A stretch of DNA of 64,000 nucleotides from Amoebophrya sp. A120 (taxonomy: Eukaryota > Protista > Dinoflagellata), in assembly GCA_905178155.1 (NCBI GenBank), contig CAJINV010000022.1, positions 793,172-857,171 of the forward strand. The letters run 5' to 3'. The notes under the pieces are model-generated. The model was given only the letters and a program-made list of their open reading frames with translations. It did not search any database and had not been told where the DNA came from. A program made the translations under genes and the position numbers. This document shows positions 6,486 to 55,600 of this stretch, in pieces; the first letter of the stretch is position 1; each line of letters opens with the position of its first letter.

Positions 6486-7099
6486 GGGAGCAGCCGGCTG
6501 GCTTTGTTCCATCCACACGCAAACCCAGGCCAGTGCGGACCGCGGGCGCGTGCGCGAACGTTTTCAGGGGCCGGATTTTGCTCCGCGGGCGCCTCGCGGA
6601 GGGCGTCTGAAACGCATGCGGGCAAGACCGCCCCCTGCTTACTAACTTGGGCAAAAATATCACTCCTATGGGAAGCCTCCTCGCGTATGCGCCCGCTTGT
6701 CTTCAGACTTGGCTTCCTGCGTGGGCGCGCGTGCTGGAACATCTAGCGCGGCAATGGCTCAAAATCTAGGATGAGAGGATAGGGCCTAGCTACCTCTACG
6801 CAAAGAATGCGAGCGCGACTAGGACCCGGACCAATGTGCGGGGCGGATCTATACCTGTCGGAAAGATATTGAGTGGGGTATATAGCGCAAATGCATCGCG
6901 ATGTCGACACACCTACAGCACGGAGAAGACGAAGCGGGTTGAAAGCTTCTACCGCTGCTGACCGAAGCCATGCGCCGACCTTGGCCCCCCGGGGCGCAGA
7001 TGGTTTGGGTTAGCAGCGCAAGGGCCTCCGCTCATGGCCCTCCCCTTTCATCATTTCCAAGCACAACGAAGCGCAGGGGCTTGCGTGTTTCCTTCTGTT

Positions 7100-8712: not shown

Positions 8713-9010
8713 TTTTCGCGTTTCGCATTTCGGAGGCGCTTCCACTCTCTCTCTCTCTCCCTCTCTTCTTCCTACTCTATTAACTCTCCACGGCCCCCCT
8801 TTGGTTTTTCGCGTTTCGCATTTCGGAGGCGCTTCCACTCTCTCTCTCTCTCCCTCTCTTCTTCCTACTCTATTAACTCTCCACGGCCCCCCTTTGGTTT
8901 TTCGCGTTTCGCATTTCGGAGGCGCCTCCGCTCTCTCTTTTCTTACTCTCCTGGCTCTCTACTGCCCTCCCTTGGTTTTTCGCTTTTCGTGTTTCGCATT
9001 TCGGAAGCGC
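8713..9010. repeat. 94-bp tandem repeat (right arm, inverted relative to left arm)
   Basis: ttttcgcgtttcgcatttcggaggcgc at 8713, 8806 and 8899. Confidence 0.85.
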
Positions 9011-9070
9011 TTCCGCCTTCTCTATACTTAACTGGACAGATCTGCAATCCCTTCTAGGAAATTAGGTGAA

Positions 9071-9608
9071 TCACGGTGGTGCTCTGCTTATTTGGCCTCC
9101 TCCCTTGTTGTTGTTTCCTGCTGTTGTGTGGACGAGCGGGATCTCGGCCGCGCTGCAGTTGTGCACCTTGTTCTCCATCGTAGGTGAATACGAGGAGATC
9201 AGGTGGCTCTCTACCGCGCGCATGCTCGCGATCAGGCCGATTCGGATCACCATGAAGAACAACCGGCGGGCCCCATGGAACTTGTTTCGCTTTTTCCAGT
9301 TCTCATGGTGCTCGGTCCAGCGCTCCACCGGATGACGGAAAGTCGACCCAATGTAAAACCGCCAGGAGTTGTCGTACACGACATACACAACCAACCCCCT
9401 GCGTTTTGTCGTCCGCGTTTTTCGTGTCGGCAGCGCTGCGTTGGAGCTCCCGAAGGGTCTCCGGTTGGCGCTGTTCTGCCTCGACGAGGCGCAGGATGCG
9501 GGCGGCCTTCTTTTTTCCTGCCTCAGCGAACTGAAGCAATCGCGCGACCGCGTTGTTGGTCCATTGCAAGAACTTCGCGCGCCTCCGCGCGTTCTTGTGC
9601 TTCGCCAT
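9071..9608 (-). CDS. GIY-YIG endonuclease of the Penelope-like element (N-terminal part in a different frame)
   Basis: VVYVVY..FYIGST..R..ERW.EH..E..LI....P..EN in 9071-9394. The ATG ORF MAKHKNARRR (9608) overlaps it and needs a shift near the G5 run at ~9395-9399. Confidence 0.8.
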
Positions 9609-9685
9609 GCTGCTCGTGTCGTCGCTGTTTATGCTCGGGGCGCCGTAAGATGTATTTCAATCCCGGAAGTGCCTGCGAGCTTGTC

Positions 9686-10353
9686 TACGACAGTGTTAGA
9701 ATCTCAGCCACTCATTGAGCGATTTTTCGATCCCGGAACAACACCGCGAAAAGAAACTTATGCATCTGCAGTTGTCGAAAGAAGGATTTGATTTTTTTTT
9801 TTTGTTTTTGGTTTTTTCGTTTTTCCTGTGCTGATGTGAAGACGTTGAGAGCTGTCGGAACGGTTCAATCTACATCAATTTTTGGTCGATGCACTGCCCT
9901 ACCGTGAGCTACTTTAAGCGGCAGACCTTCTTCATCTCAGCTTCGCAAAACCTCAAAACCCTATTTCGATTGTGCGATGTTGTTTTTTGTTTCTCTGACA
10001 TCAGAATTCTTTTTTGTTAGCAAACGTGAAGATTGTATTTGTAATGCGAAACAGCAACTTTTTCCAAAAATACAACCACGTGAAAGATGGAGAGAAGACA
10101 AATAACAAAATAATAATAAAGCAAAATAGAACCGTAGAACGTTGACACTGTGTTGCTGCGGACCCAAAGATGATTTTTCGACTGCGTCGTCGATGAACAT
10201 CAGTTTTTAATTTTTTCAAAAAATTGCTTTTGTCTTGCAAATTCGATGCACTTTGGCATCTTGGTACAGCAGAGCTCTTTTTTCCTCTTCGCCATCATCT
10301 TCTTTCACCACCATTACAAATTCCACACCCGGCATGTGTGGGCAGTTATGCTT
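9686..10353 (-). repeat. 5' pseudo-LTR of the Penelope-like element
   Basis: Copy of 1905-2576. Confidence 0.9.
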
Positions 10354-18940: not shown

Positions 18941-19035
18941 CAGGAACAGGCACAGGATCTTCAAACATTATCTATAAGAAACAGCAACAGGAACACAGGA
19001 TCAAACATTATCTATAAGAAACAGGAACAGGATGC
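18941..19035. repeat. Short tandem repeats upstream of DVNP
   Basis: cacaggatc...aaacattatctataagaaacag twice, plus caggaa units. Confidence 0.75.
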
Positions 19036-19047
19036 AGGATTCCCCCT

Positions 19048-19416
19048 ATGAAATCTCCCAACCACCTTTCCCCAATCACCGCCCTTATTCCTTCAGGTAA
19101 CAAAATCCGGGGCACCTACCAACAGGTTTGGAACGGTACGCGCGGCCGTACTGCGAGCGGTCTTTACAAATCGGATTTGATGATGAACGCCGAGGGCAAA
19201 ATCGTCAGCAAAAAGCGTTCGAAGGCTGGGAAAAAGAAGTTCGCGGGCTGGCACAAGGCTTGCGCGAAGGCCAAGCAAAAGCTGGACGTCGGGAAAAAAG
19301 GCCGGGACTTTGTGCCTATCGGTGGAGTGAGTCGAGATGGCAAGAAGCTCCTCAAGGAGGCGAAACAGGAGTACACGAAAATCAAGGCGATGAAGGTAAA
19401 GAAGGGGAAGAAATAG
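19048..19416 (+). CDS. DVNP: Dinoflagellate/viral nucleoprotein
   Basis: GTYQQVWNGTRGRTASGLYKSDLMMNAEGKIVSKKRSKAGKK and W.KAC.KAK..L...FVPIGG....GK.L.KEAK..Y match the DVNP pattern; Lys-rich; intronless. Confidence 0.92.
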   Translation: MKSPNHLSPITALIPSGNKIRGTYQQVWNGTRGRTASGLYKSDLMMNAEGKIVSKKRSKAGKKKFAGWHKACAKAKQKLDVGKKGRDFVPIGGVSRDGKKLLKEAKQEYTKIKAMKVKKGKK

Positions 19417-23739: not shown

Positions 23740-26080
23740 ACGAACATGTCGAGAAAAAAAAAAATACCGTAGAAAAAATCAAAAAGCACCTAGAAAAAAT
23801 CAAACCGTGCTCCCACTGCAGAAAAAACCAGTCGGGTGCTTTGAGAAAAATCGAGAAGAATGCAAGAAAAAACTTTCTCCGCGCGCGCGCTGCGCGCGCA
23901 GCGAGGTTGTTTCTCAGCGTCTCTGCACATGGGGCGCGCCCCAACCTCCGTCTGTCGCTTGAAAAATTTTCTCCGCGCGCTGCGCGCGCGGGTTTCCTGC
24001 CTCGCCCTTCTTCTTGGCCGCCGAGTATGTGGGTGCGGTTCTTCTCCACACAATGCGCGGCCCCGCCTGGCCGCGTGGCCCGCTTGCCGCAAAAATTTTC
24101 ATTCTCCGCGCGCTGCGCGCGCAGCGAGGTTTCTTGTCAGCGCTCCCCACATTTGGGGCGCGCACCCACCTCCGTCTGCCGCTTCAAAAATTTTCTCCGC
24201 GCGCCGCGCGCGCGGCGACGTTGCTTCTTAGCGTTCCCCGCACATGGGGCGCGCCCCCCACCTTCGCCTGTCGCTTGAAAAATTCGCTCCGCGCGCTGCG
24301 CGCGCGACGAGGTTGCTTGCAAACGTTCCCAGCACGTGTGGCACGCCCCCACCCCCGTCTGCCCTTTGAAAATTTTCTCCGCGCGCCGCGCGCGCGCCGA
24401 GGTTGCTTCTCAGCATTCCCCACGCATGGGGCGCGCCCCCATCTCCGTCTGTCCCTTGAAAAATTTGCTCCGCGCGTTGCGAGCGCGGCATTGCTACCGC
24501 TGCCGTCTTCTTGGCCACGAAGTATGTCGGCCCGGATCGTCTGCACCCAATGCCGCGCGCGTCCGCTTGGTCGGTTGCGTAGCCCGCTGCTCGAAAAAAT
24601 TTCCCCCGCGCGCTGCGCGCGCGGCGAGGTTGCTTCTTAGGGTTCCCCACACATGAGACGCGCCCCCGCCTTCGTTTGTCGCCTGAAAAATTCTCTCCGC
24701 GCGCTGCGCGCGCGGCGTGGTTGCCCCTCGGCGTTCCCCACACATGTGGCGCGCCCCCGCCTTCGCCTGCCGCTTGGAAAATTTTCTCCGCGCGCTGCGC
24801 GCGCGGCGAGGTTGCTTCCCAACGTCCCCTGCACATGGGGCGCGCCCCCACCCCCGTCTGCCCTTTGAAAAATTTTCTCCGCGCGCTGCGCGGTGGCTTC
24901 TCAGCATTCCCCACGCATGGGGCGCGCCCCCGTCTCCATCTGTCGCTTGACAAATTTGCTCCGCGCGCTGCGAGCGCGGCATTGCTACCTCTACTGTCTT
25001 CTTGGCCGCGAAGTATGTCGGCTCGGCTCGTCTGCACCCAATGCCGCGCGCTTCCGCTTGGTTGGTTGCGTGGCCCGCTTTTCGGAAAAATTTTCCCCGC
25101 GCGCTGCGCGCGCGGCGAGGTTGCTTCTTAGCGTTCCCCACACATGGGGCGCGCCCCCGCCTTCGTCTGTCGCTTGAAAAATTTTCTCCGCGCGCTTCGC
25201 GCGCGCCCTTGCTGTCTCTGCCTTCTTCTTGCCCGCGAAGTGTGTCGGGTTCGTTGGCTACCCTGCGCCCAATGCGCCCGCTCCCTCGCTTGGCTGCGTT
25301 TCCCGCTTGTCGGAAAAATTTTCTCCGCGCGCAGCGCGCGCGGCGTGGTTGCCTCGCCACGCTACCCGCGCCCACCGCGCGCCCCCGCTTGCGATGTCAC
25401 TTGGGAAATTATCTCCGGGCGCTGCGCGCGCGGCTTTGTTATTTCTCTTTTCTCGGCCGCGAGGTCCGCTTTGTTTTGCACACCCAGTGCGCCCAGCCCC
25501 GCCTGGTTGCGTGGGTGGCGGGCCCGTTGGCCTGAAAGGAAAACGAACCGCGTCCGCTTGCAAGGCGAGGCCGTTTCTCAGCGTTGCCCACACATGGGGC
25601 GCGCTCCCACCTCCGTCTGGCGCTTCGCGGTGCTGGGGCTTCGCGCATCGCTTGGCGCGTGCGCGTGTGTTCGGTTTTTCCGCTTCTGGGTGGAGGTCTT
25701 TTGATTTTCCCCGGAGGTGTTTGATTTTTTCTACCGTATTTTGGAGGTTTTCGGCCGCTGGCCTCGAATGGGCGGGACGAGAAGACTTTCGAGAAAAAGC
25801 GAGAACCTCGAGAAAAAGTGAGAACTTCTCGAGTTCTTGCCATTTTCTCGCTTCTCTCGGTTTCGGACGAGTTCCATTTGATTTTTTCTACAGCTGTAGA
25901 AAAAATCAAAGCGAGGCGTTTGTTTCTTGTGGGAAAAGCCGTCGTCTTTGTGTTTTCTCGTTTGATTTTCTCTTTATATCTTTTCTCTTCTTTTTTCTCT
26001 TTTATTCTCGTTATGATTTTTTCTACCGTTTTTTGATTTTTTCTACCATCACTAGAAAAAATCAAATATTTTATGCGCGG
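23740..26080. repeat. GC-rich ~91-bp satellite array (~23865-25620) flanked by inverted gtagaaaaaatcaaa arrays; probable foldback element
   Basis: Unit gaaaaattttctccgcgcgctgcgcgcgcggcgaggttgcttc...catggggcgcgccccc, about 16 copies. aaaataccgtagaaaaaatcaaa (23761) is inverted at 25720-25742. Confidence 0.8.
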
Positions 26081-31463: not shown

Positions 31464-31577
31464 TATGCATTGCAAATATGTCTGGGTCTGGAAACTTGTG
31501 ATGCTGAGTTGCGTAGCATGAGGAGGCCAAAAGTGATGGCTCAGCATGACAAGTTTTCGAGCTTCTAGGTGTTGCCT
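31464..31577. mobile_element. Introner family A, left 114 bp only (interrupted)
   Basis: Collinear with 12433-12684 and the reverse of 13990-14245 up to ...ggtgttgcct, then homology stops. Confidence 0.85.
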
Positions 31578-32644
31578 TACTGGTGTAACGGACCCCCAAA
31601 ATTACGGAGGTCGAAACTTGCAATCAAGTTGCCAAAGACTTGCGCGACCCAGCACATTCGAGGTCGTGACAGCTTCAACATGAGCTGTTCTGTGACGCAC
31701 CTTTGACACCGGCCGGCTTTGCAACTAACAACAAGACGCGAAGCTGTGGCACGGTGCAACGCTTTTCGTGCCTTGACGGGCGCAATATGATTGGGCAGAG
31801 TCGCTACGTCTTAAGCTTTCTAACGGGCGCGCTCTGAGGGAGCATTTAGTTTTATTTTCTTGCTTGGCTCAGTGAGAGGAAAAAGAGGGGCGACCTTTGT
31901 TTCACTATCTTGAAGGCTGTTTCTAAGTTCTCTACTCAACAGAGACTAAAGCGCGTCTGACATCTAGGCGCCCTACGAATTCAGGCTGAATCGTAACGAC
32001 AATGCGAAGGAGAACGATACTACGATGAAGCTCTGCCAAAATTAAGTAAACCGACCTTCTTCTTTTTTCACGAAAAACCGACCGGCAGAGCAGACGAACG
32101 CGACTGCGCGACTGGTTGCACGACAAGCGCGACGACTACGAGCGCCCGCACTTGTATCCCGCCCGGGGAGGCGGCGGCGACGCGTCTCATCGTACCGAAA
32201 ACTGACGCACAGAGTACTCGACAACCAGGAGAAGACACCATATTTATGCGAAAACCGAAGCAGCATATCTTTGCTGAATGTGGTAAGGAGAAAGACCGAT
32301 GCCCCATGTCAGTGAGCGCCGACCACTCACCGAGCAGGCGCACAAGTGGCTCCACAGGTCCACTCTCCCGACAGCACCGAGCTGGCCAAAGAGCGCGATA
32401 GGAAAAAAGCGAGGCGGCCCCGGCGGGTGTTCACGAAAAACGCCCGTCGGCCGTTTTTGCTTGTCTAGCTTCTTCCTGCTGCGTCAGTCATGATTTTATG
32501 CCGTTGCGTGCATCTCAAGCGTATATTTGCGAAAGCGTCTATGTGCGTAATTTAGCGTATATGTGCGAAATTCATTTTCATTGGCCAAGTTGCGTTTTGG
32601 TTTCGAAGTCGGCACAACGTGCGCTGCGAGGCTTCCATATTTAT

Positions 32645-34540
32645 TCACAGATCGTCATCCGAGTCGTCTTCGTCTTCAGTATCAGTGTCCTCCGTCACGT
32701 TTTCCATCTCGGTGACTTCCAACGCAGCTGCCCCCAGCTCCGCGTCGTCCCACCAGCGAGCAAACTCGCAGGTAAAACCGACATAAACCACAATGTCGTA
32801 TGGTGCCGTCTTCTTCTTTCCAAGCACGGCCCGTATGTTTTCGAACCGGCTGGTGTTGTCACGGAAGGCTTGGCGCCGCACTGCCTTGAGTAAGTCCCGG
32901 AACCGCTTGTCCCACAGCCCCAGGGTCGCAGCTCCGGTAGTGTCGTCTCCGCCGTTTGCGCAGCTGAATATGAACTGCAAAAGCATCGCAATAGTATGAA
33001 TTGCGTCACAAATTCAAATTCATCCGCCAAGTACAAAAAAGCAATTTGTCATACTCCTTCGGGTAGAAAGTTGGGCGTGTCATGCATGATTGCAATTGCT
33101 ACTAGTCGATGCTTTTGCAGTGGACACTGAAAGCTCCCCAACCGTACGCCATGTTCAACGTGCGTTTTGGTCCGCGCCCGAAAGAAACGCCGCACTCCTT
33201 CCTGTAGCCCAGGTTCTTCGGCAGCCTTTCCCCTTCGTCCAAGGCGTGCTCTATCGAGTTCTGCAGGATCAAGAAGAGCTTCATCCCTGAGAAGGGTCCG
33301 CATACTTTCGTGCAGGAAAGGAAGAACTCGTGTCTGCTGACCTGTCTGCGGCGTTTTCCGTCCGTCTTCTGCAGCTTCAATACGTTGGTCTCCATTTTCG
33401 CAAAGAGGTGGTCCTGCATATACTTGACGTACGCCGCGTCCGGGTCCTCGTCCTTTTTACCTTTCTTACCCCCGGCAGGCATGTAGAATTGTTCTTTTTT
33501 GCGGTATTTCTGCACGCATCCGGGTTCAGACAAAAGACGCTTTGCTGAATGCAGCATGCGCTCGGGGTCGATTGCGTCGCCGGCGTCGCTGTGGTGTGAC
33601 AAAATAAATACGTGAGTGAGAGTGGATGCGGGGCAAGAAGCTGAAAAAACAACCACCGAAACCGAAGGCAAACGGCATTTGTATAGTCAGAAGAAGAAAT
33701 GTGCGCAGAACAGCTGATGAGCATGATTTTCACGCATAACAACGAATAGACTGTACTAGGCTGCGGCAAATGTGAAAAGTTACTACTTACCTGCCCGCCC
33801 CGTCTGCCGCTCCACTCAGATCCTTTTCAAGATCATCCAGGAACTCGTCAGATGGGCTGCGCGCAAGAACCAGCGCTGTCCTGACGCGCGTGTTCCACTC
33901 TTCCCGCGCGGAGCTGCCCTTCGTTCCTTTTACGCAGCGGCTCACGAAGTTCATTCGTTTCGACCAGGCGGCACCTGGGGGAGTTTATTTTGGTGAATTT
34001 CCAAACGTAAAGGTAAAGCTGCAACCGGACCCATATTCTGCCCCGACCTTGCCTCACTCACAAAGCGCGAGACTGTGCCAAAGGATTTACCAGCGCTGCT
34101 TTTCCTCCTTATACTGGCCGACGCCGAGAACAGCTTCAAAAATGCAAACTCTTGGTTTGTGGTAGTGGCCCCACAAAGGAAAGCACTGCACTAATTTCGA
34201 ACGCAAGCAAACGACAAAAAAGGAGATCACCACACTCACCTTTGGCCTCTTGCTTCGCTTTTTTCCTGAGCCATGTTCGCGCGATTTGGAACTTGCACTC
34301 CATTACCCCCTTCGTTATCATCTCGGACCGGGGTGGGGGAGAACCCTTCCGCCTGTGAAAGGGGTTTGCGTACCTAATCACGGTGACAGAAACGCTCTGA
34401 TCTGCCGGGGCCGGTTTGTTTGCCACTGTCTCGCCACCAAGTTCGCGAAAAAACCGGCACATTTCTTCGAGCCAGAACAGAAAAACGATCATGAACTGGG
34501 CTCTGTCTGCGGGCGCCCAGTTTTTTCCGTTCCCCGGCAT
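32645..34540 (-). CDS. Divergent aGPT-Pplase1 / 5-hmdU DNA kinase helical-domain-like protein (multi-exon)
   Basis: Ordered motifs FLFWLEEMCRFFRELGGE..IRYANPFHR, QFYMPAG, VCGPFSGMKLFLIL, VSFGRGPKRTLNMAYG, YDI..FTCEFARWW, then an acidic tail. GT-AG introns (donors ~34239, ~33790) and one introner. Confidence 0.55.
32969..33126. mobile_element. Introner family D
   Basis: tatgaactgcaaaagcatcg...cgatgcttttgcagtggaca; DR ctgaa/ctgaa; removal fuses ...GWGAFS to CANGG... in frame. Confidence 0.85.
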
Positions 34541-39481: not shown

Positions 39482-42400
39482 TTAACCCGCTTTGGGCTTT
39501 TTCGCGGCGTTGCCACCCGCAGCGGACCCCGTGTTGTTTCTGCGGTTGCTGGAGGAAGTGTTGTTCACGCGGCTGCTGGAAGCGGTGTTGTTCACGCGGC
39601 TGCTGGAAGAGCTGCTGGAAGCGCCCTGACCGAAGTTGACCCCCGAGGCGGTGGAAGCACTGGAGCTACTGTTTCCGCCCGCACGCACCTGATGTTCTTC
39701 TTTGGTATTCATTGAGCAAAGCATAAAGTTGGTGGCCCGCCTACACAAAGCCCAGCCGGTATTCTTGCGGCGGGCTTTCGTAAATGAGTGATGAAATTGC
39801 GCGCAGTCGGTCAGCAAGCTCTCTATTGCAAACGGATCTTTTTGAGGGTGCCCCATTACAGTCAGCGCCGCCATGCAAAGCAAACTCCGATCATATTTAA
39901 ATAATACCTTTTCGCCGGGCCCGCTTCCGACCAAAGTGGTGCGGAGGTCTACCGGAGCCGAAATCGTGGGTCGGGACACTGGCGGACCGGTGCGGATGTT
40001 GGCACCGGAGGCATTGGGGGCGTTACCTGTGTTTTATTTTGAAGAACGTTTGTAGTTGGCGTCACTGCTACTGAGCGAATCGATCTACTGAAAGCATCGA
40101 CCCACGCAAGACGTGGTGGCTAGCACGGACGGAGCATTCAAATAATGGAACGGAAGATCGAGACGATCACGAACAAAAGCACCTCCCACAGCGGGCCCAC
40201 CTTTTCCATTGCCCTTCCCGAAGGACAGGGGCTCGTCGCCGACAATGCCGCGGACGGAGACCGCGGACGCCTTCGGCTCCGCCCGGAGCGTTTCCCGCTT
40301 TGGCTTTTGCATGACCACGTGGATCAAGTCGCCCAGCGGCTTGGTGTGCACGATGTGGTAGCTGCTGAGCATCGCGGAGGCGTCGACCAATGCCTGCGCC
40401 GGCTCCATATATTCGCAGGCATCGACGCGCTGCTCGACGGCAGTAAGCTCCTGCGCGCAGTTTCGGTCCCAGTACGCTTTCAAAAATTTCACCTGAGTAT
40501 AGTGCGCCGGAAATCGTCATGCTGCTGCACATGGATGCCCTTCCCAAGAATGGGGCCCACGTCATCAGCAAATCAGCAAAAAAGTAGAAGCACTAGTATC
40601 AGCAAAAAAAGTAGTAGAACGCAATTTATCGGAAAAGCAAAAATCTTAGCACCATCGTAGTTTCCTTCAATCCAGTCACTCGGTTCTTCACCTTCATTTC
40701 AAAGTCTTCCGCTGTCACCGCGTCATTGAATTTCGCCGAGTTGAACTTGAGGATTTCCAGACGCACTAAGTGCGGCAGCAAGTCACGCTTGTCGTGGGAG
40801 TACGCCTGCTCCACCAAGAGGGCGCTTGCGCTCAAAATCTCCAGCGACTGGGTGACACAAAAATAATTTTGATGGGCGGAAACGAAGGCCTTCGTTCGAA
40901 AAATCCGCGAACCGTCGGCCACTGTTCGGAGGAATTCCAGGTGGTCACCGAGCCTGTTGATATAGTAAACAGGGGTCAACAGCTGGAAGTCAGTGGGCGG
41001 ATAAGTTGCAAACAGGAGGAATAGTAAAGGAATCAACAAGAGCGTGCATAATATAAACGGGAACTGGAAAAAACCAAACTAAAAAGAAGCTCGCATTATA
41101 TACGCCTCAACAGCAGCCCGGTCCTGCTCTTTGGCGTCCACCAGGGCGGTGGAAAGTTTCCCTATGCAGGCGGCGACCTTGTCCACTAGCAAAAGATAAT
41201 CCTCCTCGGCTATCTGGATCAGCTTTTTCAGGTATTGCACGTTCGAAGACGCGTACTTGCTTTGGGCCTCCAGGATGCCCACGGAGAGCATGAACGCGGT
41301 GGACGAGATAGCGTTGGCACTGCATTCCCGGTCCTGTTTCAATTCAACATGAAAACGCTTCAGAGTGCTTCTCACCTAACAAAACCCACAATCGCGACAA
41401 TCTACACAAATGGCAGCTACTGAACCGCGCAGAACTATCGATTTTCGACCACGAACAAAAAGTAAAACAACCCAAGGAACTATCTCACCGAGAGCGGCAC
41501 CAGCGTCGTCTTGATGGTCTCTAAACCGCGGCGGGAAACGAGCGCCCCTTCTCCGGTCTGGATGGCTTCCGGAAGGTCCGCGCGCAGGTTTGCAAACAAG
41601 CTGTTGTACTGGTTCGGCTCGCTGTTGCGAAAGAACCGCCCGAGCGCGTCCGTTGCTTCCAAAGACCCGAACAACCTCCATTTGATTTCCGGCGGCGCGG
41701 CGAGCACCTCGTTTGCAGCCACCGCCCTCCAGCGTGCCGCCACATCCGTGACCGTTCTCTCGTAGTCGAGGATATTCTGCTCCGACTCCAGGTGCTGGTT
41801 TGTGTTTCGGAACAAATATAAAAATCGAACTCAAAGAAACGGCTGGGCAGTGTGGCCCGGAATGAAATGCAAACTTGTTCGAGCAAAGATGTATTCTGGA
41901 ATAGAATCACAACTGCGCGCGTGTTTGATTGTAAACTTACCGGTCTGAGCGCGAAGTACGCCGTCCACACGTCGTTCGTGGCGACCGGTGGTTCTTTCTC
42001 GTCATCCGGCTCGTACTTCATGCGGAACGCATCGGTGAACATGTGTTTCTTCAACTCCTCCGCGGAGCGGCCCAGCACACAGATTTCAAAGCGCAACCAG
42101 CGCAGCACCGGGGATAGCATCACGTAGTCCCAAGAATTCTGCAACCTGATGTACAAAAATTCGCGGGATATCACGGCAGCAATCTAGTGTCAGGCCGTGG
42201 CCACTGAGAGATGTGTCGTTGCTACAGCATCCGGATGGGACGCACCTACACAAGAGATCAAAAAAACCGGACGCACCTACACAAGAGATCAACAAGACCT
42301 GTCTCCAAACACAAAAAAAGTACCACTCCTTCCATGCATCCAAGTCGAGATTCTTCAAATGCCCGAGAGCGACGTCGAACAAGATGTTCCCCAGCACCTT

Positions 42401-42900
42401 GACGAATGCAGTGCGAAAACTATTTAAAAACGAGGGCAGCCACAGAAGCACAAGTAGAGCACGAGCCGCAAAAATACACAGCTGCAGGCACGCAGAACAA
42501 GATCCCGCGCCGTGCAGTTCCTTGCGTAATGAACTTAGAGTCTATTAGGCTGCATGCAAACGGCTGAAAGGAGAATCAACTGCCCCCGCCCCTACCTATT
42601 TCCAAACGAGTGATAACATGGCCGCGGGGAATTCGATCGGAAAAAACTTGTGCATGTTGATTCTGTCCTGGACGGGAATCCCATTCTGTTCCTCCACCGT
42701 TGGCAGCTGGCCGACGAACCACGCGTAGAATTCGTTCTGCTGGTAGTCGGCACCCGGCAGCGGCACGGTGATGAGCTTATTCTTCACTTCGTTGTACACG
42801 CCCTCGATATCCTTCCAAACGTCCGTTTTGAAAGGGGGCACGGCCCGCTCAATCAAGGCCCGGGCCCGTTCCTGTACGTGGTTTTTGTTGTTCAAGGGGA
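39482..42900 (-). CDS. Multi-exon orphan gene (about 8 or more exons)
   Basis: Series of same-strand protein-like ORF segments (42596-42895, 42086-42451, 41521-42174, 41480-41815, 41079-41375, 40626-41039, 40085-40492, 39482-39979) separated by short AT-richer gaps with GT donors. Confidence 0.6.
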
Positions 42901-43788
42901 TAGCCTAAAACTATTCCGCGTGGGTGGCCCCTGCGTCAAGGTTTAGAAGAAATCAAACGCGCGGAACCATGATTCAAGGCGGAAGACCACGCAGAACGCC
43001 ACGGGCTGTTTGCCAAACCTGTTACGGAGTGCTAGCGCGCTCCCGCGGCCGATCTGCATCCCAGCAAACAAAGAAGTGGCGGGCGGGCGGGGCTGAGGCT
43101 GTCGGCGCAGACAACAAAATGAAAAATATAAAGCCGTGCTGCCTGCCGCCAGAAGCAGATAGGCCAGGCCGCGACCCCATCATGCCTGGTTGGTGTTATC
43201 GGGATCGGCCTGCAAGCGCGGAACCCCCACCGCCTTCGCCCAATCCATGCCCCCGCAAAGGCCGAGTCAATGCCCCCACCCGCCTAACATGGCTCCGCCC
43301 CTCGGGTGCCCAAAGTGCGGCGGCCTTGCGAAGACCTAAGAAAACCGGCGGGGGGGACAGAGGCTTGCTAGCTTCGTCCGTGCGGGGGCGCCGCGCGCCA
43401 ATGCGCCAACACAGCAGCCCCCCGCGGCTCTGGCCCCACCGTATGCTAAACGTCCGCCAGCCCGGGCGACAAGGCGGGCAGACGCGTCCCACGAAGCGCG
43501 GGCGCAATTCCGCGGGCGCAGTTTGCACACATTGCGCCGGCCCCGGCCAAGGCGGGCGGGCGCAACAGGGAGCCGGCCAACATTCACAAAACAGAATCAC
43601 GCGGGCCGCCGAGCGAAACATCCTTCCGGCTGGGGGCGCGCGGCCGAGGAAGCGGGCCGCGGCCCACCGGCTCGCTGTGCAAACCTGAACGCGCGTCGCA
43701 ACACGTGGCCCCTGCCGGGCCACTGGCCCTCCGTACTGTGGTCGGACGGGTCTTCTTCGTGTTGTTTTTCAAGTTTCATACTATTCCG

Positions 43789-46700
43789 TTTGAAATCAGA
43801 ACACGGTCTGAATTTGGACAATTGACCGTTCCAACCAAAGCGGCCTCCTCATCAGATTTAGACCGGGCGCCGATTATTTTGAAAGAGTGCGCCCTCTGCC
43901 GGTCGCTTGCGATTGTATGCGCCAAAAAAACAAGCCAGGCGCCCCTGATCAGCTGCCACGAAGCCGGCCCCGCGCGGTCGGAGCCGACAAAGCCACCGGA
44001 ACCGGTCGGTGAGAAAACCCGGCGGCGGGCCCCACGGAGCGAGAGCGCGCGCCCAGCCAGGCGGCGAAGCCTTCCACCGGTGGCAACGCTGCTCACGGAA
44101 GGACTGAGGCGCGTGCGAGGCGTTTCGCCGGCCGGCAAGGCGGGCGCGGCCCTTGTAAGAATACCGCGACCGCACCCGCTTGCGCAGATCGATTGCGCTC
44201 CTGGGTGCCTGACGCAGCCGACGGGGCCCGTCGACTTCACTCAGAATCCAGCCATCCTGCAAACGACGCCGTGGCGCGTGCTGGCCCGGGGCGATCACAA
44301 CACGCCACCCCCTCCCGCTCTCGCCGCTCAGGCCAACAAAATTTCGTCCCTGCGCAAATGCGCGAACGGAGGCTGCACTGTTTTCGCCGCTCCCCTGCCC
44401 GAAACCGAAACTGCGCCTGCTGGCCTACTAAATAGGGCCGCAGAGGCAAACTCTCAAGGAGATCACGCCGACCCTGCGGGGCCGGGCTGAGCCTGCCAGC
44501 CATACAACCGGGGCGGCCGAAATTCCGCCGCGCACCTTTCCCGCCCAGCCGGGCCGCGGCGCCAGGTTGGCCCGCACAGGCTGCAAAGCGCGGCCGCGCG
44601 CATGCTTTCGGGCTGCGGTAGCAGCAGCAGGCCGCCGCCTGCATCTGTCAGCTAGTTCCGCCCCCAGGCGCTGCCTTTTCCGATCTCGAACGCGCTTTGC
44701 ATTCTGAACGCGCCTGCTCCCGCGAGCGCAGCCGCGGAACAAGTCCGCGACAAAGCCTTTGCATTTCCTACCTGAACACACAGCCACTCATTCACGTAGA
44801 TGCCCTTCAACAAAAACGCCAGGTTGTCGTGATTATTTAAACCACGCCACAAGGAATCGATCTGGTGCGGCTTGCATATGGCGGCGGTTTGGGCTGGAGT
44901 ATTTTTTTTTTCTGATTGCCATGGAGATCGCAGAAAACGTCTATTTTGCTCATTGTCATGCACATCAAAGTGCGCGGCATGATCGTCATGCAGATCCAGC
45001 AGTGCTATTGCTCGTGGTCTGACTGGCAGAAAAGTATTGCTCTCCTTTGCGCGGCTGCTTCGCCGGCATGTGGGGAGAACTTACCGTGCTGGTATTTGCA
45101 AAAGCGGCGGACATCGATGGCCTCTTGCGACTCACCATCGGTTCGCCGCGCTGTTTCCACCAGTTGCTTTTCGCTTAAACCCTGGCTGTGCCACTGCTTG
45201 AAGACCACTTTGCAGCGCTGGTAGTTGGCGCACTCCGGGTCCGGCGTCGAGGGTCCCACAGTCGCGAGGGCTGGAGTGAGAATGAATTTTCAATAGCAGA
45301 CGCGGAGAAGTTTGGTATACACAGAGACCCAGGAGCGCTCATTTCTGTCACAAGCAAACGTCACGCAGACGACTTTGCAGCACGTAATTACGTTACCTCG
45401 GCTCACCGGCGGTGGCGTCGCCGGCTGAAAACCCGCGTCCGGAACGCACCGCGAAAGGTCTCGCGCTTTGGCCTTCGCCTTAGCTCCCTTGGGCTTAGCT
45501 TGACCGAATTCGGGGTTGAGCTTGGCCTGGACTGCCTTCCACGACAGCCCACCGCCCGTTGAACTCATATTGCAGGTGTCTGTTTGAGCTCAAAGAAGAA
45601 AGGAGCTACAGCGTGGCTATTAAATAGTGTGGCGCGACGTGTATTGCAGCCGGGCGATGAATGTGAAGCAGTTTTTCGCTCCTTATCGTTAGTGCTACTA
45701 AGCTGCACGAATACAAGTGGAAAGCTGCCAGATGGAAATCGTTTCACCACGCTGGAGAAGCCTTTAGCCATCTACCTTCACCGAGCGGACACGAAGAAAA
45801 AACGGAAAAAAAGATACTCAGTCGTTCGTTCTTCTAGAAATGGAATTCACGACGTCCGGCATTCTGATGCGCGTCCGCGCGACTGCAGCGGCAGACATCA
45901 GCTTCGTGAAAAAAAAACCGCGACGCCACTATTCAGCCAACACAGTGCTGAAAACGCCGACACCACTAACACAGGCCGGGAGGTAGGAAATTAACAACAG
46001 ATATCGCGTTCTGGACCATTGCTTTGCATCTTTCAGACCAGTGCAACCACGAAAGAGAACACCCGACGCACCTCGGCTTGAAAAATGTCTGCGCGCGCTG
46101 GTACTATGGCAGGCCCCGCCAACTATGCTAACAGCTAGGGGTGAATAGCGGTGCCGCGGCCCGTGGCTCTTCTTGCCTACAGAAAAGCCCCTCGACGGCA
46201 ACCTAGCGCGGGCACCGCATACGATTGCTTTCAAGAATTGAGACCAGCCCCACGCGACAGGGCGAGCGGCTGGCCTGATTTCACTTTCGTCCAGGTAGTA
46301 AAGGTTGGACGCCGGGATCGCGCTTGTGCGACAAAAAAAACTACTCAAAATGAGCCGGCCTTCCCGGAAATACGGGGGCAGGACACTGGTGGCCGGCGAC
46401 GCACATGCGCCGTCGTGCGCCACCCAGGGACGGGACTACCACAAACACGCTGGCGAGCTGCCAGTTGGCAGCTCGCCGGCTGCCTGGGCTCCTACCACGG
46501 CCCCGAGAGGCCCTGCGCCACCGTGAAAGTTGGCCAAGAGGCGCGAGACATGCGAGGGCCAAGCGAGGGCGCTACGGCTTGCCGGGCTACGTACCTAAAT
46601 GAATCTGGCTGCTCGGTCGGCTGCAGGGTTTTTCCCTCCCGCCGGCAGCAGGGCGGGCGCCGGCTCATGCTCCTGCGCTTTTCCCCATCCCCCGTCCCGG

Positions 46701-47557
46701 CGAAACGGGTCCCCGCCCAATACAGAAACCCTGGGTGGCCCAGCCGGGCCAAGGGTGCTAACCGGGGCTGCAAAAGCGGGGCCGGCGCCACGGGGGCGCG
46801 GCGACCCTCTGCTCCACCCCGGCCGGGGAAAGCGTTCCGGGCCGGCGGGTGGCGTGGCCAAGGGGTCGGCCTGTTCGTGCGTTGCATTTTTTCCCCGCCC
46901 TGCCCCCGTGCATCGTCCACACACTCGGCCACCGAGGTTCCGTCCGGCTGCTGCCTGCCAATGCATAGTGCGGCGGCCCGGCCGCGGGGGCATCGACGGG
47001 TCGGCGCGGGATAAGACCATGCGGGCTTCCCGCCAATGAATGGGCCGACGCAACAAGCCCACGGAAAACTGGCCCCCATCATCCCACGAGCCGACCCAAC
47101 ATGGAGGGCCGCCCGGCGGCACCTCTGCGGCCGAGCCTGGGCACATCGTGAGGCGCGGCCCCCCCGCTTCCGCGGGTGCTGGTCGCACGCATTGCGCCAG
47201 CCCCACACCGAACCGGCGCCGAAGAGCGCTGGCCAAGCAACACAAGCCACACTCACAAAACGAGATGCCCCGCCGCGGACTGCCAAACGGCGCACCCGGC
47301 TGGCCGCGCGCGGCCGACCGAAGAACCGGGCCCCGCCTGGCGCGCGGAGTGGGCCGCGGGCGGCACCGCGCCGCGGCGCAACACGTGGGTCCGGCCTGGG
47401 CACTGATCTGCCTACTGTGGGCGGCGAGGTGTGTTCTTTGTTACTAAAAATCGAAAACCTGTTGTTGAAAAATCGAAACACGCTCTAAATCCGGACAATT
47501 GACCTGTACAATCGTAAAGGCCAATTGTCCGGATTCAGGTCGTGTTTTGATTTCAAA
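43789..47557. mobile_element. 3.8-kb segment bounded by ~39-bp imperfect inverted repeats
   Basis: tttgaaatcagaacacggtctgaatttggacaattgacc vs reverse complement tttgaaatcaaaacacgacctgaatccggacaattggcc (33/39); no TSD seen. Confidence 0.55.
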
Positions 47558-48060
47558 AGCCCAACGATGAAGAAAACAATTGCGCGCACGGGCAAGCTTG
47601 TTCGGCAGTATTACATCCATGCACCACCGAGGCACGGGCAAGAAGGCCGAAAAGGACGCCGGGCCCGGTGATGCGCCAAAAAGCTCGAAGGGCCGCCCCT
47701 CCGGAGCGAGGGCGCGCGCCAAGGCGGCCGGCGAACTCTTCCGCCGGCGATGGCGACGCAACACTACTGGGGCGCGCCGCGCTAGAGCTGGCGCGTAAAG
47801 CCGTGCTCCGTCCCACGGAGCGGCCCGGCGCCTCTTGTTGCTGGAATAGCCCGGCGGCGCACCCGCCTGCGCAGCTTGGCGGCGCCCATAGCTTCGGCGG
47901 GGGCCCGCGCGCGCGGCCCCGGAGCAGCAGGAGCTGCCGGCACAAATCAAGAACGCCGCGCGCCGCCGGGGCGAGCGCCGCGCCGCGGCCGCCGGCGGGC
48001 GGCACTATCTTCGGGCGCGGCGTGCTCCAGCAAACAGCCGGGCGGCCAGGCGGGAAGCTC

Positions 48061-48800
48061 GGTCGACCATACCATGGGCGCTGGGGCGTGATACTTTTTA
48101 GCAGGGCGGGAACGCGGGCGAAAGTTTTCGCTTTCGCCATCGTGGCAACCTGCGTTCGCCATGCAAGCGGCGCTAGGGTGTGATACTTTTTACCACGGTG
48201 GCACCATGGGCGAAGAAAACTACCAAAAATCATGATTTTACCCCCCTCCCGAAGTGCGGCCGGCGCCTTCGGACGGCGCCGCCGCTTTTGCGGCTCGCAA
48301 ATCGGCTCCGTCAGCTCGTGGACAGGCCTCAGGAAGTAGCCCAAAACTGGGCACGCCCGCGGGCGGCCGGAATCGCAGCAAAAACTTGAAATAAACTTGG
48401 AATAAACTAGCAAGCCGGGTCGATGCTTGAAAGCCATCGAAAGCTAGCCCCGGTGGTATGGTGGACGGAGCCCTTCAGATTTTGGGCCAAAAACGTCGGC
48501 AGATCCAAGTTTTTTTCGCCTGCTGCCGAGATGCTTCGGCGGAGGCGACGCATTTTCGCCAGCACTTTCGCTGGGTTGCAAGTTTGAACGCCGTAGCAGC
48601 CTGGCAAAAAGTATCACAACCTAGAGCCCACGGTATGGTCGGCGCCGCTTTCATCATTTTCGGCCTCCGTGGACTCATCCTGCCAAAAAGTATCACACCC
48701 TAGAGCCGATGGTATGGTCGACGCGGGTTTTGCCTGTTTTTTTGCATCCATGATAGCACCGCGGCAAAAAGTATCACACCCTCTGGCCGATGGTGTGACA
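48061..48800. repeat. Array of AAAAAGTATCACACCC..GGTATGGTCG motifs, 2 reverse and 3 forward
   Basis: Forward copies at 48605, 48685, 48765 (80-bp period); reverse copies at ~48061-48099 and ~48172-48191. Confidence 0.8.
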
Positions 48801-49684
48801 CTTTTGATTTTCTTCATTTTCGGGACCAGTTCGAACCCGTCCAAGCACTCACGGCGCGCAAACACAGGCCACCAACCATCGCGCGTGAGCGCCCCTATGC
48901 GTATAAGCGTAGGGGGCCCGAAGCTGCTCGCTCAGGGTCGCGCGGGGCTTTGTGCATTATAAAAAGGCATCCGGGGCCCGAGAATGCGGGCCCGATGCGT
49001 CGCCTGAGCGCGCAAGCCCTCCACCTGGGGCCGCTTCGGCATCGCCAACAGGCCTCCCAAGAACCAGAACCCCGCGAGCCCGCCAAGTTCGGGCGCCCCG
49101 GCAGCCGGCGCCCGTGCAAATAAGCAGGGATTTTGAACACCCCCGCAAGCGGCGCACTCAATGGAGGCGACCCCCTCCTAAAGTATTGAAATGAAGAAGA
49201 GCCGCGGCCGTCTAGTCACAGCGCAAATTATAGTGCCGACAGTGAGCTGCCAACAACCGCATCTCCTGCGGCCTACTTGCCTGCGATCTCTTGCGCCGAT
49301 TTTTTGTATGCTCACATCATGAAACCCACAAGAAACATCGTACAAAAGGGGAAACTTCGTGCGAACGCGCGCTATTAATTGGATACATTTCGAGCACAAA
49401 CGAAAAGGAAAACTCATACGCTAGAAGATACATTCATACAACAGAGCGAAATCATACAGGCATTACCATCACTACAAGTTCAGTTACAAATGAAGATGTC
49501 TGAAATGTATAGTACATAGCGGCTTCAGTAGTAAAAAACAAAAAGAAATAGCTATAGGGAAGCGGTGATCTTACTGAGCCCGCGCCCGGGCGGATGCGCT
49601 CTTTGTTGAGTTTATCTTAATCTTTGTCGCACCAGATCCAGGGTTCTATTTCCGAAAAGCCGCAGCACCCGAGTACTGGACTCT

Positions 49685-52600
49685 TTACTTCTCGGGCCGG
49701 TAGTGCTGCTTGGTCTCCTTCTGGTGCCAGCGGGTGAAAAGCTGTGGGACCGGGCTCAGATGCTTATAGACTGCTGCATGCAGCTCCTGCAACTCCTCGT
49801 ACTGGGTCCGCTCTGGCCGCGTCCTTGGCTTGAAGGCCTCAGCTTTGGCACGCGCGGTGAGCGTGAATTCGTCAAAAGCGGTTTTGATGCGCGCCCGCTT
49901 CTCCTCCGCGGTAAGTTTTCGCACCCATTTCGGAGCATCTCCCGGCTGCTCCAGCCAGTGTAGGACTACGAACTTGGCGTATCTCATCCACCAGACCAAA
50001 AACCTTTCCCCGCGCGCCCTCGTGCTTTCGTCTCGAAAGGATTTCTGGCGCACCATTGCCTGGTCTTGCGTCCGGAGAAAATCGGAACCCGCCGGCTTCT
50101 GGAAGATGAAGTTCATGCGGCCGTAGTAGGTCCATTCCGTATCTGCAAACGCCATGAGCAGACACCCCCGCTCCCGCTTCTCCGTGTACAATTTTGCACT
50201 GCCGACAAAATCCAGCACGAAGCCGTCGATACCATCGCCCGCGATGTGCTCGCCTGTGGCCTTCTTTTCCTCGAAAACTGCCGCGCGGTGGTGCGCGATT
50301 TCTGCCGCGGACATTTGCTTCCTTGGCGAGAACCGGCTCCGCTGGCCTCCTGTTTTCTCTTCGGCGCCGTCCAAATCTGGCGCGAGGTCGTTATCACCTT
50401 CTCCCGCACCGTCTTCGGAGATATCCATCGCCAGGCGCCTTAAGCGGTTCCGCATCTTTGCCGTCATTGGTGGAGTGGCCTTGCTATTGTTTACTGCTGG
50501 ATCTGCTTTTCCTGCACCCGCGACGGGCGCTTGTGGATCCTTTAACGCAAAGTCGGATCCCCCAAGGGCTGTGCCTGCAATATGAGAGACCGCCCCGCTC
50601 ACGGCGTTAGCGACGTCTCTAGTGCTGCTCGATGCTGCTGCCCCGCGCAAAATGCCATCTGAACGTGCTACCGCTGAAGAAGTCGGTCTGTCTTCCGAGA
50701 ACGCCCACTCCGATTCGGATGATTCGACGTCAGCTTCGTCGCGCAGACCCTCTTCGGGTCTGCTTTCCCCTCCAGCCTCTGGCCGCAAATCGTCCTCGCT
50801 ACAAGAACTACAGGAAGCGCGGTCGAACTCAAGGTCCAGGTCGTCGGCCGAATCTCTGTTATCCCCCGCACCAGTCAACTCCCCAACGCGACCGTCAGTA
50901 TGCCGAGCGTGTGAGGATGAAGCTGCGTCTGCGCATTGTAGTGATGGGGCGGAAGCCGTACTCCGTCCCGGGTGTGCAGGCACTGACGATGGGCTTGCGC
51001 CTGGCTGTGCCTCCGTCGACCGATCCGCGGCGAACTTGGTCTCACTCCGGCGCTGGAGTCGCGCCGCCGCTTGTTTTGCTTCTGCTGCCCGCCTTCGTAC
51101 TTTTTTCTCGCCGCGGCGCGTTTTCAGCTGCTTTTCTTCCTTCTTTCTCGCAGCTTCTACACGGTGCGCGCGCTGGGCTGAAAGAAATTGCAGAGCGGAG
51201 CAAATGTTGAGCTTGCTCTGCATGAGGATGGCCTGCCGCAGTGTGCTGCCTTTGAAGCCTCCGCGACTTGCCACGGGGGCTCCTTCCACACCAAGGTGCG
51301 GATCGTTGGCATTCAGATCGCCGGGAAGGAGGAATGCGCCATCTTCTTGACCAGGATCTTCATCCCCGTCGGGCATGCAGTCGTCCTGCGCGTCAGACGT
51401 CGCGCTGGCAGCTTTAGCCGCAACAGCTTGTGCGGCCACGCGACCAGAGCCGGTTTTCTTTTGCCGCTTGTTCTTCCGCTCCAGCACTAGCCCGGTACTT
51501 CGTTCGTACAGAATCCGGTCGCCGTCCACGAAATGCTCGATCTGGTTGATCCGAAGAACGGAATCTGCCTGAATTTGTAGCGCCACGTCCCCCCCGCCTT
51601 CCTTCGGGGCAGTGGCGGCTCTCGCACCTGACCCGACAGCCCCGGACGCTGCTCTACTGCTGCTGGAGGCGGATGTAGAGGCTGCCGGCCGTGCTCCTCG
51701 GGTGCTGCGGCCACCAGCTGGGCAAAAGCCTTCGAGTGTGACCCAACTGAAATTCCACGTCGTTGGACACGCGAGCCGCTTGTCCCATGATGCGATGTGC
51801 CGAATAGCTGTTGTCGATTCCGCAAGCACCGCCCCGAGCACATCTACGACCTGCTCGCCTGCCTTTCCGAACTCCAGAGCTACAAAGATTCTCGGGTTTC
51901 CCAAGGTCCAGCACACGAGGTAATCCACGCCGCCGAGTGTCAAAACCAGACGTCGCGGAAGGGCAAGTGGGTCTTTTGCAGCCGCTGACCCGGCGTGCTT
52001 TTGCTGCAGGCGAAAAGCAAAACACCCGCAGGGGCTGGCAATAGTCGGACTCGGAACTCCACCACCCCGCTCGAAGCAAGAAAGAAGGGAGGGGTCCAAT
52101 ACTGGGCCGAGAGTTGCGTTTTCAGTTACCACCAGCGGCTCCTCGTGCTCCCTCACGCGCCGCACTGGTATGGAGGAAACCAACGGCGGGAGTGCCACGT
52201 CGCGAATTCCCTCCCAGAAATTCTTCTGCTCCGCTCTGTTGGAAATTTTGGCGTCAACTTCCTTCAACAACCTTTCCAACCGTGAGCGGGTTGCTTTTCG
52301 CACGAACAAGGAGTCGCCGACCGCGTCAATCCCTTCGCTCCACCACTGCTCGATGGTTGCGGGGTTCGTCTTGCCGGCCCTCCAGGCCTTCTGCGCAGCG
52401 TCTTCGGCTGTGAAAAGTTCTTTGTGTCCTCGGCAGAACGCACGGTGCAACGCTTCCGGCTTCTTCGCCGCGAACTCACGCTGATCGCGCTCCAGCTTCA
52501 GGATCTCGTCTTCCTCCGTGTCTAGTTGTTTGCACAGGGCTCGGCGGCGCTCCTCGAACTGTTCCGCCAATGCTTCCGAAGCGAAGGCGGCCTGCGCGGT

Positions 52601-55600
52601 TGCCGATACTGCGTGCTCCCCTCGCCAAGCCCTTCGGGGCCGTTGCGCATCGTGAACGAAAGTGTGATGCATCTCGTTTTTGCAGCTCGGCCATCCAATG
52701 AAAAAGTGTTTGGTGTTCTGGAAGCGAGATCTTGGCACCGCGTAGGAAATGCAAGATAACTTTTATTCAGCATGCAAAGAGAGAACCACACAAAGAGAGC
52801 ATCGAAGAGAGTGTGCTGATAGAGGAAATCGCGCGCGAGGGCGTCCGCTGCCACTAGCGTGCGAGAATAGATATCAAAACGGACACGCGCAGCGTGGCTT
52901 CCGTCGTACTGTTCGTTGGGCTTGAGGGTGAGCCATGAGACGCATGGCAAACCTCTGTGCCCTTGCTTCGTTCCAGATCCAGGCACTGTTCCAATGCACA
53001 TCGACAAGTCCCCCAGCTGCACGTGCGTCGCCATCGTGTCCAAAATCGTAACGCCTGCTGCTGGCGAAATTTTATCGCGGTCGCAAATCAAATTCACCAG
53101 GTTCCCGTTCTCCGCGAGCTGCAAGGATTTGCATACGAACTTGCGGAACAGCGCGTCGCGGTCTTTGGTAAACTCCACGAAATGCAGCCTCTTCGCGTCT
53201 TCCGCCATGCTGCTCGTCTCGGCATGCCACGCAAGGGCGAGCTGTAGATGGCCCTCAAGCTGTGCAACCCGATAAACAAACCCGGCCAGTCCTCGGAGAA
53301 TTGCAAGAATTCCTCCAATCCGGAGGGGTTCGTGAAATTTTGCGACGCCATCATCTCCCGGCGCGACGATACTGACGTCCTCCTGAAACTGCTGCAAGCC
53401 CAGTCGCTTGGCGGCAACGCGGGAAGATTCGATGAACTGCTGCTGGTTCGTCCCGTGGTGCCGCAACGTGGGAGTTGTGCTCGGGTCCCAGCTTCGCTCT
53501 TTCGTGGCGGATCGGGAATAGGTCTCCCCGGCTAAATGGTCCGCGGCGTTGCTCGTCGTCGCGGCGTATGCTGTTGCAAAATGTCGGGGCGTGCTCCGTG
53601 TTCCTTGAAAATGCACTCACGCCCATAAACCCTGAGGAGCCGTTCTCTTTACTTGTCTCGGCTCGAGGAGCTTGCTGTTGCTCCGCCGCAGAGCAACGAC
53701 CAAAAAATGAAAAGAAAACACAAGTAGCTTTCACACGAGGCACACAGGGCGGATTTCACACGACATCCTTTTCCTTGCTAATGTTTCCCCCGAGTGCCAG
53801 CCCAGCCCCGAAAATTTGCAATCCATACCACAACATGCGAAAGCACGCCGAAATCGTAGCTCGTAAGTAAACCTGAATCGTGAATGAGTCAAGATCTGCA
53901 ACGTGGGTCGTAATCCCGAAAAAGTAAACCCTTCAGGGGCGCCAAGCAATCAGCTTCGACCCTAGTGAGGAAAAAGCTGCAAGACTCTTGTTACTGGAGG
54001 AAACTATCGGACAACAACGACCCGCTCCGAAGTGGCTCAGTGGCCTCATCAATAAGTACCTGGACAAAGCGAGAATCCACTTGGCGTGTAAATTCCGGAG
54101 CCGATGTGTACGCCCTCGAGCGCGTCCGGCGCGCCACCGTTATACGCTGTTCGCAATGCCGCGAATGCGCAGGCCTGCCGGCTGCACAGCAAAATCGACC
54201 ACCACCTTGTGTCCGAAGGAGGGCTGCAGCGCGGCAAAATGGTAGCTATCGCGGCCTTCGTTGCCGGAATCATGTCCGGCGAGCCGACGTGCGGAGCCCC
54301 ATTGTGCAAGGCAAACGGCAACTCGCCGCTTTTCTCGGTGCTCCACAGACTATGGTGCTCCAGGAAATTCAGTGTGCGTGCGCGGAGGACCTCGAACGAT
54401 TCCAAGTTCTCCACCACTACGGTTGCTTCGTCGACGAGTTCGCGAACGTCTTTTATCAGACCAGGCCGGTTTTCATTCACGAGCATATTGAAGGCCCACG
54501 AGAATGCGGAGTAGAAACATCTCTTTCGCCGTTTTTTTGTGACCCCCGCGGTCGGCTTCATGTTTTCCACGTTCTCCCACTGCTGTGCTGCGGTTGGCCC
54601 TCCCGCCGGGTCCGTTTCGGTTTCTTTTTCCTCTCTCGCCTGCTGCTGCTGTGCGGGGTGGCTCGGGTCGATGAGCAACAAGCCGTCGTCGTGCAGCTCC
54701 AAGAGGTTCAGGTCTTTCGGACCCGCTGCTTCCTTTCGAAAATTGCTGCTCGATCCGGCGGCGGTGCCTGTTTCACAGAAGTTTCACGATATTCCCTTTC
54801 CCTAGTTGCTCCGCGATGTGAAGCCACTAGCGGCGACAGAGCCGCTTATATTTGAACAGGGGTTGGAACATGAGAGAAGAGGTTCCCACGCATCCAGTTA
54901 TCTGTTGCCATCAAATCAGCATCATCATCAGGGAAACAGACCTGCGCGGTGGGCGGCGGCGGAAGTACTTGCGCCGGCGATCGCCTTCGTCGAACCTCTA
55001 CCACGGCCGGCTTTTTCCTCCTTTGCCATCGCGTCGAGCCGCTCGCGGATCGCGACGGGAATCATCTTCCCCCGCAGCTCGGCCGTGCATTCTCTAGAGA
55101 GAATTTGTTGCTGGTGCTGAAATATTGCGTGAAGAGTGCCCCTAGATCACGCCCACGAAAGTGGCACCATGGCAACCGGAGCAAAGGAGCGCGGCGATGA
55201 ATGTCGCGTCTTGTGTATCTGTTCGTCCGATTCCCTGCCGACGCTGACTAGTATCAGTGGACTGGTGGCGCGAAATACTTCGGGCCACACAAGAGGACGA
55301 GGCGACAAAACCTACTAGTACGACTACCCCCGAAGACGAGAGAGACGCCCTTGCTCCGGTGGCGCATCGGCTAAGGGTCTGTCTTGCGCTTCACTATCAT
55401 AACTTCACAAAATTCACCCCAGCAAACGATAGGGTACGGGCTGAGAAGAAACCAGCTGCGAGGCTTATTCCGCTGCGAGGCACCTGTCTGCGGCTGCGCG
55501 CGGGCAGAGCTTGCTAGTAACTTTGCGCACTTTCTTGCTCATGCTATGCAAACACTGCGCAAAGAGAGCCCATGCTATGCGAGCGCGGCTGCAAGCGAGA

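Follow-up and report, generated by a model that had tools for sequence, protein, structure and literature searches.

Does a gene in the stretch of DNA analysed here (64,000 nucleotides; hereafter the window) encode a relative of the phage protein family PF18723, and if so, is it carried on mobile DNA in a lineage whose genomes contain 5-hydroxymethyluracil (5-hmU)? A sequence-only reading of the gene at 32645-34540 had proposed both, and had suggested that the product writes or reads a further modification on the 5-hmU of its host. The reading that we favor, to which we assign a probability of roughly 45%, is more restricted. It holds that the gene encodes a diverged, DNA-binding protein of the PF18723 fold, which is not a kinase, and that it likely sits close to the 3′ terminus of a large insertion resembling a Helitron.

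The gene itself looks real and intact, its splicing being predicted. It occupies the minus strand from 34540 to 32645, where four exons separated by three GT..AG introns yield an open frame of 425 codons. Exon 1 (34540-34240) begins with the first in-frame ATG past an upstream stop, at 34540, and contains FWLEEMCR and RYANPF, which resemble the first two blocks of the PF18723 family. It is followed by predicted intron 1 (34239-33975; 265 nt, GTGAGT..CCCCAG), by exon 2 (33974-33791), in or beside which part of an excess of about 60 residues over the phage members is located, and by predicted intron 2 (33790-33589; 202 nt, GTAAGT..CCACAG). Exon 3 (33588-33126) carries the motifs FYMPAG, GPFSG and GRGPKRTLNMAYG, the latter at 33141-33179, as well as a K-rich loop, and exon 4 (32974-32645) carries CEFARW at 32770-32753, an acidic tail and a TGA stop. 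All the motif strings that had been claimed thus lie in one spliced frame and in the order described. The donors of introns 1 and 2 are strong, with phases that agree. In all four exons, the frame of the model is the only one free of stops and also the best fit to the synonymous codon use of the long open reading frames (ORFs) in the window; GC content at the three codon positions (GC1/2/3) of the exons is 0.57/0.44/0.69, and the introns have a GC content of 0.42-0.49. As for transcripts, three RNA runs placed 2-4 reads each on the region from 30 to 38 kb and none on the gene, and the contigs of a fourth were almost confined to repeats.

The third intron leaves more choice, as seven donor/acceptor pairs are available and the frame stays open with every one of them. 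We prefer the junction 33125/32975, because the resulting intron of 151 nt then has a perfect 15-nt terminal inverted repeat (32974-32988/33107-33121), with the proviso that this predicted donor was chosen partly after the motif had been seen. When folded, the intron forms a hairpin (z -2.9, reached by 2 of 200 shuffles), and its end motif has seven matches in the window where 0.24 are expected. The repeats and the hairpin fold resemble those of the introner elements of Amoebophrya, whose repeats measure 8-20 nt and are present in some canonical introns as well (PMC7789003, in excerpt). Further copies of the end motif include those at 28342, 29361, 30443, 30561 and 60105.

With respect to the relationship to PF18723, the most favorable evidence comes from a chain of seven position-specific scoring blocks in family order (ER, FxN, AR, AY, GxF, GPG, CE). 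The spliced protein scores 20.4 bits in this test, a value reached by 6 of 1500 shuffles (P 0.015 by Gumbel fit) and by none of 72 pieces of unrelated proteins, the best of which scored 6.5. Across 12 settings that differed in splice model, profile and slack, the score was reached by 0 to 25 of 600 shuffles. True phage members that had been left out of the profile score 97-137 bits. The control set had consisted of 73 pieces before Vi01_130c was removed; this protein (L002:2432-3655, minus strand), whose annotation calls it uncharacterised, reaches 195 bits, the score of a full PF18723-type member.

As far as these comparisons go, the signal of the chain hangs on one block, GRGPKRTLNMAYG. Alone, it reaches 13.9 bits, which none of 1000 shuffles attain, and no other block, taken in family order, stands out by itself; when it is left out, 195 of 1000 shuffles reach the chain score. 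The block aligns with the family sequence GPGxxRGLNRxYG at the positions G-x-G-x-x-R-x-L-N-x-x-Y-G. The FxN block, for its part, finds its best match in exon 4, outside the family order (9 of 1000 shuffles), which indicates how easily look-alikes come about. On this weak signal, the motifs may exceed chance.

In an alignment anchored by hand, the order of seven blocks like those of the family can be kept between residue 21 and roughly residue 390, at plausible spacings of 30/30/109/64/40/86 as compared to 25/35/47/54/30/53 in a phage member. In the same hand-anchored alignment, 7 of the 14 positions that are invariant among 13 diverse members are identical in the gene (N, R, F, G, G, C, E), two are similar (F to Y, K to R) and five are lost (R, R, D, D, P). 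The best sub-threshold alignments to a diverse 17-sequence HMM place GPF in the family register for six of seven splice models (full alignments for five), and a MAFFT alignment does so for both GPF and GxG. Furthermore, a Cys-Glu-aromatic motif lies near the C-terminus, as it does in the family.

Standard methods find no significant match. A Pfam scan of the single exons returned no family at E values up to 1. Against home-built HMMs of 120, 129 and 17 members, the spliced models score between -2.4 and 1.4 bits (E 0.011-0.13, for one comparison each), the Pfam cut-off for PF18723 being 25 bits; the Pfam scan was thus run on exons and the home-built HMMs on spliced models. HHalign against the family, a comparison close to the HHpred check that the sequence-only reading had named, gives the spliced model a probability of 0.2% and single exons one of 0.2-8.5%, with the registers wrong. 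Glocal alignment to the whole profile is no better than for shuffled sequences in eight of eight settings, with 101-247 of 300 shuffles reaching the score, and no pairwise comparison with proteins of the family falls below E 1.8. Since the clade 2 transferase of phage M6, a true remote relative, also scores at noise level in both the chain and the glocal test, these two tests have low power.

Structure and wider searches for homologs yielded nothing firmer. Exon 3, the only exon modelled, gives a helical fold of low confidence (pLDDT 56) that matches nothing in BFVD (best E 0.59) or the PDB (best Z 5.3). Searches with exon 3 found no homolog among the 191 candidates drawn, at longer lengths only, from 5.8 billion proteins, and a single match, an unrelated repeat protein, among 1.84 billion representatives. 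None of 312 stretches in metagenome contigs and, for exon 1, neither of two in viral contigs was a homolog; exon 4 reached at best E 5 in phages, and exons 3 and 1 had no usable match in the ESM Atlas. DNA patterns of the motifs were absent from viral contigs and occurred at 21 metagenomic loci, none of them supported by anything past the motif. There were no long fused members of the family among 2647 candidates, no relative bridging the gene and the family in the collections searched, and no solved structure of the family by sequence search. Likewise, none of the titles and abstracts examined concerns a dinoflagellate aGPT-Pplase.

Membership in PF18723, as proposed originally, is unproven: the ordered chain of motifs is weakly above shuffles, whereas every standard profile method is without a significant match. 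We put the chance of homology at a little above one half. The link is suggestive, and the gene should not be filed as a member of the family.

The explanation that competes most seriously with ours is that the gene, like its neighbors, encodes a helical and fast-evolving orphan without relation to PF18723, and that the motifs are chance look-alikes picked afterwards; we hold it to be nearly as likely as our own reading. It accounts readily for the uniformly negative profile tests and for a signal that is held by a single block of 13 residues. Orphans are common in this setting, as no Pfam match of the 140 ORFs from 26 to 50 kb falls below E 0.026, and about 60% of Amoebophrya proteins lack an assigned function (PMC7789003, in excerpt). 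Moreover, a P near 0.004 does not hold up once thousands of families are searched. What an orphan explains less well is that ordered blocks cover the protein from end to end, and that the best of them fits the family at G-x-G-x-x-R-x-L-N-x-x-Y-G and is then followed by Cys-Glu-aromatic near the C-terminus.

If our preferred reading of a diverged PF18723-fold protein is followed further, its function has to be sought from the family, for which the accessible parts of the literature examined report no activity of any clade 1 protein. In phage M6, Pfam assigns the kinase to PF18748, the transferase to PF18724, and the ORF after the kinase, which is the clade 1 protein, to PF18723. Eukaryotic homologs of the family have already been noted in basidiomycete fungi (Lee et al. 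2018, PMC5889632, in excerpt). A clade 1 member, modelled with confidence (pLDDT 93.8), has the transferase 8Z2N as its best match (Z 11.5, rmsd 4.2, 222 residues aligned), followed by glycosylases of the Ogg/HhH type and a queuine salvage enzyme; in BFVD, it matches clade 1 proteins, and there is no kinase among the 50 structural matches listed. By this model, PF18723 is a helical family with an HhH glycosylase-like fold.

A homologous protein would thus adopt a fold of the HhH type, by which a base of the thymine type is flipped into a pocket, and this pocket would be lined by the retained Cys-Glu pair. In clade 2, the structure of a transferase of which has been reported (PMC11472151, in excerpt), the Cys is the nucleophile, and Glu-Thr at Cys-4/Cys-3 bind a metal that is needed (PMC13458397, in excerpt). 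The gene reads VGFTCE, so that, if the Cys is mapped correctly, Cys-Glu is retained and Val-Gly stand at Cys-4/Cys-3. The phage-type transfer chemistry would then have been lost, because of this Val-Gly and because several invariant Arg and Asp residues are gone. The suggestion made earlier, that with an altered consensus the protein may bind rather than catalyse, fits the loss of residues and the absence of the putative metal ligands. The most likely role would be that of a reader or a shield of 5-hmU, or of T, on the DNA of the element.

An active writer is an unlikely alternative, in which the retained Cys, as in the clade 2 transferases, attaches a group to 5-hmU or to its phosphate in the DNA of the host or of the element, and the partner enzymes are encoded elsewhere. 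The conserved Cys-Glu and the modelled proximity of the clade 1 fold to the transferase 8Z2N are consistent with it, and the marking and silencing of transposons by 5-hmU in Amphidinium (PMC11572971, in excerpt) would give an element a motive. The missing putative metal ligands and the lost invariant Arg and Asp argue against it, as does the silence on clade 1 activity in the sources mentioned above, and partners are not in sight either. The sequence-only reading had recognised no partner amino acid:DNA transferase in the window, and our Pfam scans agree for both transferase and kinase. This check, which had also been named there, found no P-loop kinase or clade 2 transferase in 140 unspliced ORFs from 26 to 50 kb, nor in 59 of the 138 ORFs listed elsewhere in the window, a scan that spliced or distant partners would escape.

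A function as 5-hmdU DNA kinase, at which HMUDK_hel, the Pfam name of PF18723, hints and which the fusion of a PF18723 domain to a kinase in SP10 (PMC5889632 Table 3, in excerpt) might suggest, is highly improbable, since known kinases are P-loop proteins, PF18723 would have an HhH-like fold, and 32645-34540 contains no Walker A motif. The statement that characterised members of the family are 5-hmdU DNA kinases does not hold, as the characterised kinases are separate P-loop proteins (PMC8989533 Table 1, in excerpt); it appears to derive from the Pfam name, given that the kinases belong to the P-loop family PF18748. In the work of Lee et al., every 5-hmdU kinase is given as a P-loop kinase and the transferases are assigned to clade 2; M6 gp54 plus gp51 sufficed there, as a mixture of lysates without gp55 still gave product (PMC8989533, in excerpt).

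The gene can be compared with the known systems. With the clade 1 proteins (M6 gp55, PhiW-14 gp72, ViI gp160 and the C-terminal domain of SP10 gp186), it shares the order of motifs, a stand-alone helical character and the hand-anchored half of the invariant residues. It differs from them in being about 130 residues longer from the first to the last block, in the five residues lost, in its spliced eukaryotic structure and acidic tail, in the absence of a significant profile match, and in having neither a kinase nor a transferase as a neighbor. Clade 2 (PF18724; PaMx11 gp46, PDB 8Z2N) is of the same fold family as clade 1, and the gene resembles it in having, close to the C-terminus, a Cys where the catalytic residue is inferred to be, whereas it has Val-Gly for Glu-Thr and no sequence match to PF18724. 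With the 5-hmdU kinases (PF18748; M6 gp54, ViI gp67/gp243), only the pathway named in the sequence-only reading is shared, since these have a P-loop fold and the gene has no Pfam match.

The second part of our question concerns the carrier. A MITE copy on the plus strand (31464-31579) is truncated, with 105 of 245 nt aligned, and is the likely target of an insertion. It is broken at 31579/31580, 1.07 kb downstream of the stop codon of the gene, and it is the only one of nine copies in the window to be broken, the eight others being of full length. Exactly at this break sits a Helitron-like 3′ end on the minus strand (31580-31612), consisting of a hairpin with a 7-bp stem, 11 nt to CCAG, and then T. 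This signature of hairpin, CCAG and T occurs seven times in the window on both strands together, once at the MITE break, with a pattern that was relaxed to CC after the site had been seen. GC content rises across the break from 0.46-0.48 to 0.57-0.58, and each of the 24 MITE ends falls to the left of 31600, with none in the following 32 kb. We consider it probable that the gene is the last ORF, in the direction of the element, of an insertion that resembles a Helitron and measures at least 32 kb, and the cargo position that had been claimed is borne out to that extent by the cut MITE, the hairpin end at the cut, the GC step and the right side free of MITEs. A deletion, a rearrangement or an assembly join would also cut the MITE. 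In the window up to 64000, neither the missing half of the MITE nor a 5′ TC end was found; the latter, like a RepHel gene, may lie farther along the contig.

Helitrons have a hairpin about 11 nt from their 3′ end and insert beside an A/T of the target, and both features have a counterpart in the window. Canonical elements have TC..CTAG ends with the hairpin before CTAG (PMC12001565, in excerpt), from which the CCAG of the window differs by one base. They are also known for the capture of genes, which the present case would resemble, and reach up to 39 kb in maize (PMC6431247, in excerpt); the insertion described here, if it is one element, measures at least 32 kb, and it differs in that the window holds no RepHel gene. 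More broadly, no Rep/helicase, transposase or recombinase was recognised in the window among the ORFs that the Pfam scans covered, and no terminal inverted or direct repeats bracketing the gene were found.

The region from 31580 to 64000 is in itself of note as a candidate giant element. It forms a GC-rich block of at least 32 kb without the MITE families that fill 1-31.5 kb, and it contains co-oriented minus-strand orphan ORFs such as that of 1025 aa at 49688-52762.

The host is a dinoflagellate, as indicated by a reading frame for DVNP on the plus strand at 19018-19413 (Pfam PF19060, E 2.3e-16), which lies outside the element; on this point the earlier assignment was right. In its short introns, its introner-like intron, its co-oriented genes and its many orphans, the window looks like an early-branching, Amoebophrya-type genome (PMC7789003, in excerpt), a resemblance that bears on lineage only. 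The abundance of 5-hmU to which the sequence-only reading appealed is documented for dinoflagellates generally (PMC11572971, in excerpt), while the accessible parts of the literature examined contain no measurement for Syndiniales or the Amoebophrya-type group. Against this background, one may imagine a Helitron-like element of more than 32 kb with a phage-derived HhH protein that recognises 5-hmU and masks or chemically alters it, so that the element would evade silencing. Such an anti-silencing system, built on the fold of base-hypermodification proteins, is a speculative extension, and we think it improbable.

If a transposon-borne member of PF18723 does exist here, it would join two questions, namely the role of clade 1 and the purpose of 5-hmU in dinoflagellates, and it would provide a protein available for testing. 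For this, the gene is a poor first candidate, because homology is unproven and its putative active site has changed. A firmer lead may be the probable giant insertion with its many orphan genes.

Several other features of the window deserve mention. On the minus strand, 39485-45571 probably holds an orphan gene of several exons, the N-terminal ones rich in Cys and His, and one of its introns contains a GC-rich insert of roughly 1.9 kb. The stretch 47470-48811 is made up of inverted repeats and nested palindromes, with a related copy at 43789-44089. At the other side of the window, a Penelope-like retroelement with identical 300-nt direct repeats extends from 2015 to 10091; it comprises an RT-like ORF of 1127 aa (2701-6081), with RT motifs recognised by eye and no Pfam match, and a separate GIY-YIG ORF (9074-9628, E 5e-5). 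This element was considered as a carrier and rejected, as it ends at 10091 and the gene lies outside it. Finally, a tandem array at 23868-25625 is GC-rich and repeats a unit of about 91 nt.
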